From assembly GCA_000165345.1 (NCBI GenBank), contig CM000429.1, positions 768,001-832,000 on the forward strand: a stretch of 64,000 nucleotides of DNA, given 5' to 3'. Positions 21,001 to 24,000 of the stretch are shown in pieces (within the stretch, counting starts at the first letter, position 1; each line of letters begins with the position of its first letter). Made by a program: the position numbers.

Positions 21001-24000
21001 TTACTGGAGGTATATATGGATTAAATTTAACATCATTTGATACAGATAGTCCTATTTACACAACTTACACTACTGGATTCTGTGCATTTCCAGGAGCTCA
21101 GTTAGTTGAACCTTTATACGAGGTTGTTGATAACGTTTATGGTGTTGATGATTGTAATATTCTTTGCCAGAATGATCCTCATTGTTGGTTATGGTCTTAC
21201 AATATTGTTAACAGACAGTGTTCATTCCATATGAATGCAGTTTCATTCGAATATACTTCTGCTCCAGATGTTGTTTCTGGCCCAAGATATTGTCAATGTA
21301 ATTATGAAATGCCAAACCAATTGTTTAATTTGATTGGAAAGAATGTAAAGATTTCTAATAATAATAATAATAATAATAATAATAGTGGAGGAGATTACAA
21401 TGCATACTTTTCAGAAAATACATTCGAGTGTGACTATCCAACATTTGGGTTTGCAATTACTAATGGGGATCCAATCTTGAATACCACTTCTCCATCCCCA
21501 CAAGTTTGTTTGAAGGAAGTTCTCGCAGATAGGGGTGGGATTGCGTCTTATTGGACTTACGATCCAATTACCCAAAGATGTGAGAGTGCTGTAGGAGGTT
21601 ATCTTAGGCCTCAAAAGTTTGGTCCTCCTACAACTCCAAAAGATTTGGCAAAAAATAATCACGGACAAAATAACAATGCATTCTTGTTAGGAGGTGAAGT
21701 CCCAAGAGTACATAACACTCCAAATAATTTCCGTAAGCTAAGTCTTGATTTGTTTGAGAAACTCCCTACAATTAATGAAGAAAATAAGAAAAGCATGAAT
21801 TTTGAGAATTTGATTCCTGAAATGATGTCCATTCCAGATGTTGGGGGAGTATCGCCTGTATATGGATTTAAAGACAATAAGAATGAAAAGGATGGTGATG
21901 GTGATGGCGATGGAGATGGAGATGGTGACGGGGATGGAGATGGAGACGGAGATGGAGATGGTGATGGTGATGGAGAGGAGGAGAGAACTACTTCTACTAC
22001 TACTACTACTACTACTACTACCACTACCACTACTACTACTACTACTACTACTACTACTACCACTACTACTACTACTACCACTACTACTACTACTACCTCT
22101 AGTACCACCACCACTGAGATGGAAATAACAGAGGAAGCTAATGAAGAGGAAAAGAATACTGAACAAAACACTGAGTTCTCAAACTTGGATGATTACCTTA
22201 AAATTATTGAACAAAATAATGAAAACATTCTAGATGGAAATGAAATTAATCCTGATGAAGAAAATAATGAAGAATATAAAAACATATATGACATAGCAAC
22301 TTTGATAGTGTCTCATAAAAGTATTAATGAACTTACTGAGGAAGAAGTGACTGAAGCTCAATCTAATGAACTTAATCAAGAAGAAAGGGAAAGTTCAATA
22401 GAAAAAGTGTATGAGATTACGGAAAGTATATTAAATAGTCTCGATCCAAATCAAATCTCTATTATTGATACTCAAATAGCCGAAGGAATACATCGAAATT
22501 ATAGTATTGCAACTTTAAAGATACCTTTCAACAGTTTTGAAGAAATTAAACAAGAAATATATAATAATTATAATTATGGCTATCCAATATATTTCTTAAA
22601 AGGATTATATAAGGAAAATGTTTTAGATTTCAATATTAATGGATTTGATGATTTTCAAATCATTGATTTGACTTTCTTATTCCAAAATATTTCTTTCTGT
22701 GATATATCTAAATATCATGCAACTATTATGGTTTTAAATATTGCAGCTAATATACACAAGTTACTTAATTGTAGTCCACATATGATTCAAATTACAGATT
22801 TCCCACCAACCATTATTGAACAAAATATATATTGCCAAAAACGTGTATTAGAATATACTGTGAGGTAAGTTGAAAATTTCTATATATATATTTACATCTC
22901 TTAATCACAAACTAAATTATTAATGAAAATTCCTATAAATATAGAATATTTATTCACAATGTTCAAGATAATATTCCAAGATTAATAAATCATTTACACA
23001 ATGCAAAATATATATTTAATGGAAATACATATACTCCAATCATTTTAGTAGGACATTCAGTTTCAACTACAATTCCAAATCTTTTGTATGAGGAAATTGA
23101 GAGACATATAATAATTCAGCAACATTTACTTTTAAAGAATAAGACTAATGGATGTATAATGAATGAAGATAACTTCTTTGCAGAATTAATTTTATATGAA
23201 AGATCTTTTGGAAATGATGTAAGTTTTTTTAATTCTATTATATAAGTTATTATTATTAATTATTATTATTTAGAACAATGATGGATTTATTGACTTGAAT
23301 AGTAAATTGATTTCAATACTACCAAATGATGAATTAACTCCATTATTCTTTTTGCCAAGACCAATTTCTAATGATCATTCTAGAGGAGAGTCTATCTTAT
23401 TAAAGTTATCAAAAGAGTCTGTCAAGTCTAATAATGAATTTAGTAAATCAATATATTCTATGTTTGGACAAAGATCATCATTAATACCTTTTGATTTTGT
23501 CTTTTCAACAATTAATGAAACAGGAACTGGTATAATTAATATTGAGGGTGAAAATTATCAAACATTTATTCCACAAGTTAAAGATTCTGATTCAGCTAAA
23601 TTATATACTTTAAGATTTGAATTATATGGCAGGGATTATTGTTTAGATGTAAGTTATCATTGATTACTTTTTTTTTTCTCTTAATTAAAAAAAACAAAAC
23701 AAAACAAAAAATATTTATATATTTATAGGTAGCACAAGACTTTAGAAGATTCACTCAATCTATTAAAGATACTATTTCAATAATGTTATCAATTAAGCCA
23801 AGTAATGTTCAAATAATACCAGTACCTTTACCAATGGATTTAAAAGCATCCATGAAATGTTCAAGTATACCTTCAAGTATTCATTCTGGTTCCATTGCTT
23901 ATGTTCAGTAAGTTTTTTAATAAAAAAAATCACATTTAAGTGGTTATTTAAGAATTATAAACTTAATTCATCTCATCATCTTTCTTTTTTTCTTTTTCTA

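Follow-up and report, generated by a model that had tools for sequence, protein, structure and literature searches.

Assembly-level length differences in a compound (Asp-Gly)n/poly-Thr coding repeat of the Cryptosporidium Apple/PAN gene cgd1_3550

Subtyping of Cryptosporidium relies on gp60 and a few variable-number tandem repeats (VNTRs), and the chromosome-1 markers in use discriminate poorly, with Hunter-Gaston discriminatory indices (HGDI) of 0–0.17. The 64,000-nucleotide stretch of C. parvum chromosome 1 analysed here (assembly GCA_000165345.1, contig CM000429.1, positions 768,001 to 832,000 of the forward strand) is called the window in the following, and coordinates refer to it unless stated otherwise. 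It carries two adjoining coding arrays inside the gene cgd1_3550, one encoding Asp-Gly (DG) units and the other a run of threonines. A first-pass annotation had proposed that both are hypervariable in length and could provide a typing marker. The question that the locus raises is thus whether these arrays change in length between isolates, and what such changes would mean for the encoded protein and for typing. We find that the locus is very probably a compound coding micro/minisatellite in exon 3 of cgd1_3550, resized in frame between isolates while the flanking gene stays nearly constant.

Two neighbours, the TPR protein and a 126-aa open reading frame (ORF) located downstream, led to the orthologous loci in other genome assemblies, and an allele was defined as the sequence between two conserved 41-nt flanks. 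In this way 11 assemblies of four closely related species could be compared. It is important to point out that allele calls throughout are made at the level of assemblies and not of reads.

Ten distinct alleles are present among the 11 assemblies, and each length difference is a multiple of 3 nt that preserves the reading frame. The proposed length polymorphism is thus borne out at this level. Instead of a single length common to all isolates, differing alleles occur within three species: two among the three C. parvum assemblies, five among the five of C. hominis and two among the two of C. meleagridis. In C. parvum, the allele measures 225 nt both in the window source and in GCA_015245375.1, and 231 nt in GCA_048859185.1. 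The latter departs from the window by one ACC-to-ACT change and by the gain of one ACT and one ACC, so that its core reads ACT8 ACC ACT13 ACC ACT5 ACC ACT5 ACC and its terminal run is (ACC)4 in place of the (ACC)3 of the window; this (ACC)4 is also seen in seven Logan short-read contigs. Three of the C. hominis alleles are 195 nt (GCA_001483515.1), 201 nt (GCF_000006425.1) and 189 nt (GCA_001593465.1) long. A fourth (GCA_002223825.1, 219 nt) carries a duplicated block of ca 30 nt (ACA4 ACT5 ACC), and the fifth (GCA_045269125.1) again has 195 nt, with DG9 and not DG8 and with a Thr tract different from that of the other 195-nt allele. The C. tyzzeri allele has 183 nt, and those of C. meleagridis 255 and 267 nt.

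Among the elements that change are runs of ACT, of ACA and of ACC, the DG hexamer, the 30-nt block and an (ACC ACT)n stretch with between 4 and 6 units. The Ser/Thr block comprises 43–45 codons in C. parvum, 44–54 in C. hominis, 36 in C. tyzzeri and 57–59 in C. meleagridis. The DG units number 14 in C. parvum, 8 or 9 in C. hominis, about 10 in C. tyzzeri and 11 or 12 in C. meleagridis; their array does not differ among the three C. parvum assemblies, while C. hominis alleles, like those of C. meleagridis, differ among themselves by one unit. Hypervariability had been proposed for the two arrays alike; of the two it is the Thr array that varies more, the DG array, degenerate as DNA, being much less variable.

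The surroundings of the arrays behave quite differently. The left 41-nt flank has no mismatch in C. parvum, C. hominis and C. tyzzeri and the right one has 0–2; in C. meleagridis the two flanks have 1 and 6 mismatches. Judged from these alignments, the flanks should be conserved enough for one primer pair. Outside the arrays, an aligned stretch of ca 3.2 kb (19625–22868, exons 1–3 with two introns) shows only 0–3 single-nucleotide polymorphisms (SNPs) within species, and three C. hominis assemblies as well as both of C. meleagridis are identical over it, their arrays being different nonetheless. We also aligned a 24.5-kb locus for within-species pairs (one of C. parvum, three of C. hominis, one of C. 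meleagridis). In these pairs the arrays are the sole coding indels; the other internal indels are intergenic or intronic, and several of the non-coding sites are homopolymer or AT tracts listed by Tandem Repeats Finder (TRF).

As a control we used another repeat of exon 3, a perfect (AAT)9 array that encodes poly-Asn. It has nine units in all three C. parvum assemblies and five in the two C. hominis sequences examined, so that it looks like a repeat that differs between rather than within species. Its steadiness means that the assemblies do not scramble every repeat, and also that not every trinucleotide array here is unstable.

We now turn to the anatomy of the repeat, for which codons were parsed in the frame of ORF 20091–22868. 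TRF reports a period-6 array at 21891–21980 (15.2 copies, 85% matches, score 110) and a period-3 array at 21987–22096 (36.7 copies, 90% matches, score 185). Both are in frame in this ORF and in the nine-exon gene model, and they encode (DG)14-EEER-TTS-T34-SS-TTTT, residues 697–771 of 1569. This places them in the middle of the protein: the PAN domain lies in the N-terminal half that precedes them, and no domain is recognised in the half that follows. The EEER linker is shortened to EEE in C. hominis and C. tyzzeri and to EE in C. meleagridis. The first-pass annotation had counted the units correctly, as (GAT GGN)14 and about 40 Thr codons: there are 14 GAY-GGN units, and 40 ACY codons within a 43-codon tract. 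It had also placed the start correctly at 21891, while its end at 22114 falls one base short of the last Thr codon. The arrays, which it called perfect, are so as protein and not as DNA, given the 85% and 90% matches and longest perfect runs of (ACT)10 and two hexamers.

The two arrays differ in how they are built. The 40 Thr codons are 32 ACT and 8 ACC, with no ACA or ACG, while 44% of the Thr codons in the window's other large ORFs are ACA or ACG; the chance of finding none among 40 is ca 1e-10. Because only ACT and ACC are used against this background, the Thr array is a genuine repeat at the DNA level. The tract runs ACT ACT TCT, then 34 ACT/ACC codons, then TCT AGT ACC ACC ACC ACT to 22115, and its 34-codon core is the most mutable part. 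In the DG array, on the other hand, Asp is encoded by 12 GAT and 2 GAC, and Gly by 7 GGA, 5 GGT, 1 GGC and 1 GGG, the longest perfect hexamer run being two units. The Gly codon usage is near background, from which it follows that this array is kept as protein and is degenerate as DNA.

Two other readings of the same bases were considered and rejected. Antisense ORFs across the arrays (minus strand; 170 aa at 21659–22171 and 142 aa at 21738–22166) are stop-free by-products of the repeat, reading as poly-Val or poly-Ser, and not genes. Instability driven by hairpins was ruled out by the single-strand DNA fold of the arrays, which is in no way unusual (z = −0.07).

Concerning the mechanism, the Thr tract can be regarded as an ACT repeat with occasional T-to-C changes, which would gain and lose units of 3 and 6 nt as well as larger blocks of ca 30 nt. 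This most likely takes place by replication slippage and by unequal recombination between misaligned pure sub-blocks. Alleles that shift the frame would be removed by selection, and the finding of only in-frame alleles is consistent with this. The DG array would be slower to change because it is degenerate as DNA. The outcome would be that nearly every isolate carries its own allele while the remaining gene is almost constant.

The product would be a secreted, probably glycosylphosphatidylinositol (GPI)-anchored Apple/PAN protein of the apical (microneme) compartment of the sporozoite, to which the repeat contributes first an acidic (Asp-Gly)n spacer and then a mucin-like poly-Thr tract. The Thr tract probably carries O-linked N-acetylgalactosamine (GalNAc), the O-glycans of C. 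parvum being likely Tn (GalNAc-Ser/Thr; PMC10034466), and together with the acidic DG block it would form an extended spacer between the PAN-bearing half and the membrane-proximal half. Antigenic or glycan-density effects of array length would be plausible.

The identity of the gene follows from the literature and from domain searches. cgd1_3550 has been described as a 925-aa Apple-domain protein, with the peptide EKNTEQNTEF (residues 687–696) used as immunogen (PMC8710574), and this peptide is found in the window ORF at exactly the same residues, 16 residues past the Ser/Thr tract. In the same study, the anti-peptide serum labelled the anterior third of sporozoites in an immunofluorescence assay (IFA) and the protein was considered 'very likely micronemal', while immuno-electron microscopy failed (PMC8710574). 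The sole Pfam domain that exceeds its cut-off is PAN_1, and it does so marginally (21.6–21.8 bits against 21.4); a second Cys-containing PAN-like segment was noticed by eye only. Sequence matches of the PAN region in the PDB are weak, namely Toxoplasma gondii MIC4 (4a5v, E 0.0026) and Sarcocystis SML-2 (2yil, E 0.012). The Pfam Mucin family PF01456 scores 22.7 bits, below its cut-off of 34.7, and the mucin-like tract makes up 43 of 1569 residues in a protein that is not dominated by Ser/Thr repeats. The gene had been labelled a mucin, and this has to be corrected: since PF01456 stays below its cut-off and PAN_1 is above, cgd1_3550 is a candidate microneme protein of the PAN/Apple type into which a short mucin-like segment is inserted, and not a classical mucin.

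Our hand-spliced model of cgd1_3550 is given in Table 1. All eight introns in it have the form GTAAGT...YAG. Read from Met 20091 it yields 1473 aa, the same length as annotated in GCA_015245375.1, and its two upstream exons align with the N-terminus of the C. andersoni orthologue. From its hydrophobic N-terminus, exon 1 is predicted to encode a signal peptide, and the hydrophobic C-terminal tail indicates that the product is probably GPI-anchored. The widely used 925-aa model has neither the signal peptide nor the C-terminal 644 residues and, judged against the spliced sequence, is truncated at both ends. The published description, in which the protein is said to have no signal peptide (PMC8710574), differs on this point from the model with two upstream exons, and annotations conflict among assemblies as well (925, 1473+81, 1486, 1515 and 1558 aa). 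That the 925-aa model is incomplete matters to groups for whom this candidate microneme protein is of interest as a vaccine antigen or as an adhesin.

Table 1. Coordinates in the window of cgd1_3550, its exons and the repeats of exon 3
Feature	Position	Strand	Remarks
cgd1_3550, full gene	19625..24987	+	9 exons, 1569 aa; hand-spliced model with a single terminal stop
Exons 1-5	19625-19724, 19790-19932, 20046-22864, 22945-23218, 23274-23648	+	
Exons 6-9	23729-23907, 24005-24409, 24485-24805, 24893-24987	+	
Exon 1, predicted signal peptide (MMNSVKTMIFNGIITVYLLLITGIYS...)	19625..19724	+	Hydrophobic N-terminus; matches N-terminus of C. andersoni P0001
PAN/Apple domain	21084..21245	+	Residues 332-385 of the 925-aa ORF; Pfam PAN_1
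Perfect (AAT)9 poly-Asn array, control repeat	21356..21384	+	Same exon as the arrays; TRF
(GAY GGN)14 = (Asp-Gly)14	21891..21974	+	Codon parsing, TRF
GAG GAG GAG AGA linker (EEER)	21975..21986	+	
Ser/Thr tract	21987..22115	+	43 codons, 40 Thr; mucin-like segment
34 unbroken ACT/ACC codons	21996..22097	+	ACT8 ACC ACT ACC ACT10 ACC ACT5 ACC ACT5 ACC
Longest perfect run, (ACT)10	22029..22058	+	
Terminal (ACC)3 run	22104..22112	+	
GTAAGT splice donor	22865..22870	+	Overlaps the apparent stop 22866-22868 of the older 925-aa model
Last exon, hydrophobic tail (...SNASSGALKLSQISSAWMILITLIILIRY) resembling a GPI-anchor signal	24893..24987	+	

How firmly the length differences can be attributed to isolates depends on how much trust the assemblies deserve at this site, and several points weigh against in-frame resizing between isolates. 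The array defeats assemblers: Logan contigs and the C. andersoni contig end in it, C. ubiquitum has an N-gap there, and every allele call is derived from such assemblies. The only shared allele is that of the window source and GCA_015245375.1, two assemblies that may or may not be independent, and with only three C. parvum assemblies available the variability in that species comes down to one comparison. GCA_048859185.1, which provides this comparison, has a 1-nt deletion in a T-run of a neighbouring gene, and it is thus not free of indel error. Finally, the fold score means that simple repetitiveness alone favours slippage. The Logan contigs contribute no array length, as all of them stop at the ACT array or at (AAT)9 (SRR5007564 is one that ends at the latter); the overlap at their ends seems to fit a de Bruijn graph with k of about 31 and not heterogeneity. 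The T-run deletion itself (window ca 25413–25430, ca 7390–7400 of the retrieved stretch) alters the C-terminus of the minus-strand ORF 25413–26216, from 267 to 276 aa; it may reflect a genuine frameshift or else an error in sequencing.

Taken together, points of this kind could mean that the length differences are assembly artefacts and that the true length is fixed in each species. k-mer assemblies do break within the array, a homopolymer indel lies nearby in GCA_048859185.1, and in work on GP900 long Thr repeats have been flagged as a source of errors in assembly (PMC10434960). Against this, the observed differences stay in frame in every case, and they are accompanied by point changes typical of real haplotypes (ACC/ACT, GGC/GGT, ACA blocks). 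The difference between ACC4 and ACC3 recurs in eight independent assemblies, counting GCA_048859185.1 and the seven Logan contigs, and in these assemblies the (AAT)9 array, only 500 nt upstream, shows no variation within a species. At 183–267 nt, moreover, the entire array is within reach of Sanger or long reads, which is presumably how TU502 (Sanger) and IOWA-ATCC (long-read) were sequenced. We consider an artefactual origin quite unlikely on these grounds. A more serious option is that the arrays are real but evolve slowly, marking lineages and adding little to gp60 rather than varying at the scale of isolates or outbreaks. The identity of the DG array in all three C. parvum assemblies speaks for this, as do the allele common to the window and GCA_015245375.1, the same array 3' end in seven Logan contigs of one run series (DRR7292xx), and the near-monomorphic behaviour of other chromosome-1 VNTRs (MSB, cgd1_3670, cgd1_470_1429) in field panels. 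What goes against it is that all five C. hominis alleles differ although three of these assemblies are identical in the ca 3.2-kb flanking stretch, and that the two C. meleagridis alleles differ with no SNP there. Slow evolution of this kind is therefore possible, but we judge it to be the less probable case.

A further alternative accepts the variation and asks what maintains it. Diversifying selection, immune or host-adaptive, could act on an exposed glycosylated stalk, so that the length variation would be more than neutral slippage. The product is a secreted apical protein, the acidic block and Thr tract are kept here across the intestinal species (the Thr tract in C. andersoni also), and the DG number depends on the species (14 in C. 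parvum against 8–9 in C. hominis). However, the variation follows the purity of the DNA, pure ACT being variable and the degenerate DG hardly so, which is the signature of mutation pressure; and the codons used for Thr change from species to species, with blocks of ACA in C. hominis and a larger share of ACC in C. meleagridis, the residue itself being kept. Maintenance by such selection is thus very unlikely in our estimation. Related to it is the idea of a contingency-like locus, in which rapid in-frame resizing of the spacer in a GPI-anchored micronemal adhesin would generate selected adhesive or antigenic diversity. We regard this as doubtful; if it were true, few single loci in C. parvum or C. 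hominis would discriminate better, for every genome would be unique at this locus, which is unlinked to gp60. The preferred reading remains an in-frame, compound coding satellite that is resized between isolates.

The module can also be followed beyond the four species. In chipmunk genotype I, 19 Thr come after a DG block that counts about 8 units and contains two substitutions to Glu, and C. ubiquitum has the acidic block and more than 60 Thr, with the N-gap lying within the tract (LRBP01000009.1, ca 19087–19300 of the retrieved stretch). In C. andersoni, a Thr tract without DG stands at the equivalent position, after the conserved motif IPDVG. As the Thr tract holds the same position across the genus, the module is old and retained, with its length free to vary.

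It is worth noting that the C. andersoni contig LRBS01000100.1 stops inside the poly-Thr array (ca 6270–6426 of the retrieved stretch). The C-terminus of the corresponding protein OII73835.1, '...LQQLLQQLLHLQQLLLQLLL' ('LQQLLQQLL...'), is a +1-frame reading of ACT/ACA codons, and this model is hence truncated and mis-framed because its contig ends inside the array. The array is thus a recurrent assembly breakpoint that has resulted in at least one wrong protein model, with an out-of-frame C-terminus. A protein search with the ORF retrieved the C. andersoni orthologue only, and the exact ORF was absent from the cluster table searched. Orthologues in C. hominis, C. tyzzeri, C. meleagridis, C. 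ubiquitum and chipmunk genotype I were still retrieved via neighbouring genes, and since orthologues in at least six Cryptosporidium species were reached through neighbours, the silence of the protein search is not evidence of absence. A metagenome scan with the exact 41-nt left flank found nothing.

As to the chromosomal setting, ORF 20091–22868 is found exactly in CP029780.1, at ca 0.79 Mb of this 881-kb chromosome. The upstream neighbour (12970–17472) is 100% identical to a 'TPR repeat protein' of C. parvum Iowa II, and both matches mark the window as C. parvum; a gastric species as its source, which the lone C. andersoni hit had suggested, is rejected by the identity of the TPR protein. 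The window further holds TSP1/PAN proteins and an AP2 gene, cgd1_3500 being TRAP-C1, and a search of it against Rfam gave no match. Two observations on other repeats in the window can be added. Non-coding homopolymers (G16, A16) and AT/ATA microsatellites vary in length between assemblies of the same species, at 11654–11669, 8621–8636, 25330–25474, 26287–26327 and 26961–26996; from the window to GCA_015245375.1, two sequences with hardly any other difference, the length of the G16 tract changes by 6 nt. In addition, an (ACT)11 array with 93% matches (2163–2195) lies inside the minus-strand ORF 258–2354, probably TRAP-C1/cgd1_3500, where it would give poly-Ser (AGT) on the coding strand of a TSP1/PAN adhesin and is a candidate variable coding repeat.

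Finally, we compare the locus with known systems. As Apple/PAN proteins, T. gondii MIC4 and Sarcocystis muris SML-2 resemble the cgd1_3550 product in their PAN_1 domain and by weak sequence similarity, which goes together with the apical IFA signal of cgd1_3550. They differ in being built of tandem apple domains and, to our knowledge, they have no DG/poly-Thr insert. A more distant parallel is MSP2 of Plasmodium falciparum, a GPI-anchored zoite surface antigen with a length-polymorphic poly-Thr and repeat region that is used for genotyping. MSP2 is an unrelated protein of another genus, and its variation is tied to dimorphic allele families and known immune selection.

Within Cryptosporidium, the micronemal glycoprotein GP900 (cgd7_4020) is similar in having poly-Thr mucin-like tracts. 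GP900, however, is a very large mucin dominated by tracts of far greater length, in contrast to a tract of 43 residues in a 1569-aa PAN protein. The historical 'Poly-T' locus of GP900 was used to discriminate Cryptosporidium types (PMC2928199), by restriction fragment length polymorphism and not by length.

The published markers for multilocus VNTR analysis (MLVA), such as cgd1_470_1429, cgd1_3670, MSB, TP14 and ML1, are likewise coding tandem repeats that were detected with TRF or simple-sequence-repeat finders and are scored by copy number. Their HGDI in published panels is 0 for MSB, 0.097 for cgd1_3670 and 0.17 for cgd1_470_1429. The cgd1_3670 marker lies in the same window: both published primers (Ramo et al. 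2016, PMC4746124) match exactly, at 53225–53489, giving a 265-bp amplicon that corresponds to the dominant published allele, and its array (53296–53453, 18-bp period, 8.8 copies) is inside ORF 47338–53505. Under the design rules for MLVA, repeat units should be perfect, homogeneous and no shorter than 5 bp, and internal indels should be absent (PMC9043402). At cgd1_3550 the Thr array has a unit of 3 bp and includes the variants ACC and ACA, the hexameric DG array, in which GGN codons are mixed, reaches 85% matches, and the arrays are adjacent; filters of this type would have dropped the locus because of its 3-bp unit, its heterogeneous 6-bp unit and its two adjoining arrays. We found no paper that names cgd1_3550 as a marker, in a literature search that excludes the main VNTR-discovery paper (Perez-Cordon 2016), where the DG hexamer may figure.

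For use in typing, the lengths do differ, as had been suggested, and fragment sizing is nevertheless insufficient. The two different 195-nt C. hominis alleles represent size homoplasy, so that sequence-based typing is required, as for gp60. The locus could add resolution in the low-diversity C. hominis, since all five assemblies are separated, including the three that are identical across the flanking stretch; this gain is conditional on confirmation at read level and in isolate panels.

The closest likeness is to gp60 (cgd6_1080) itself. That protein is O-glycosylated, and its poly-Ser TCA/TCG/TCT array is the standard Cryptosporidium subtyping locus. The two loci have in common an in-frame trinucleotide array of mixed synonymous codons that varies in copy number in a secreted zoite protein; the use of the gp60 array in subtyping is described in PMC9043402. 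The differences are that the repeated residue is Ser in gp60 and Thr (ACT/ACC) in cgd1_3550, that the cgd1_3550 array is in the middle of the protein beside a second (DG) array, and that the non-repeat part of cgd1_3550 has no allele-family structure, its flanks being nearly invariant. As cgd1_3550 is on chromosome 1 and gp60 on chromosome 6, the two arrays are unlinked. Seen in this company, the locus is an ordinary and apparently unexploited variable repeat of the kind that is already used for Cryptosporidium subtyping.

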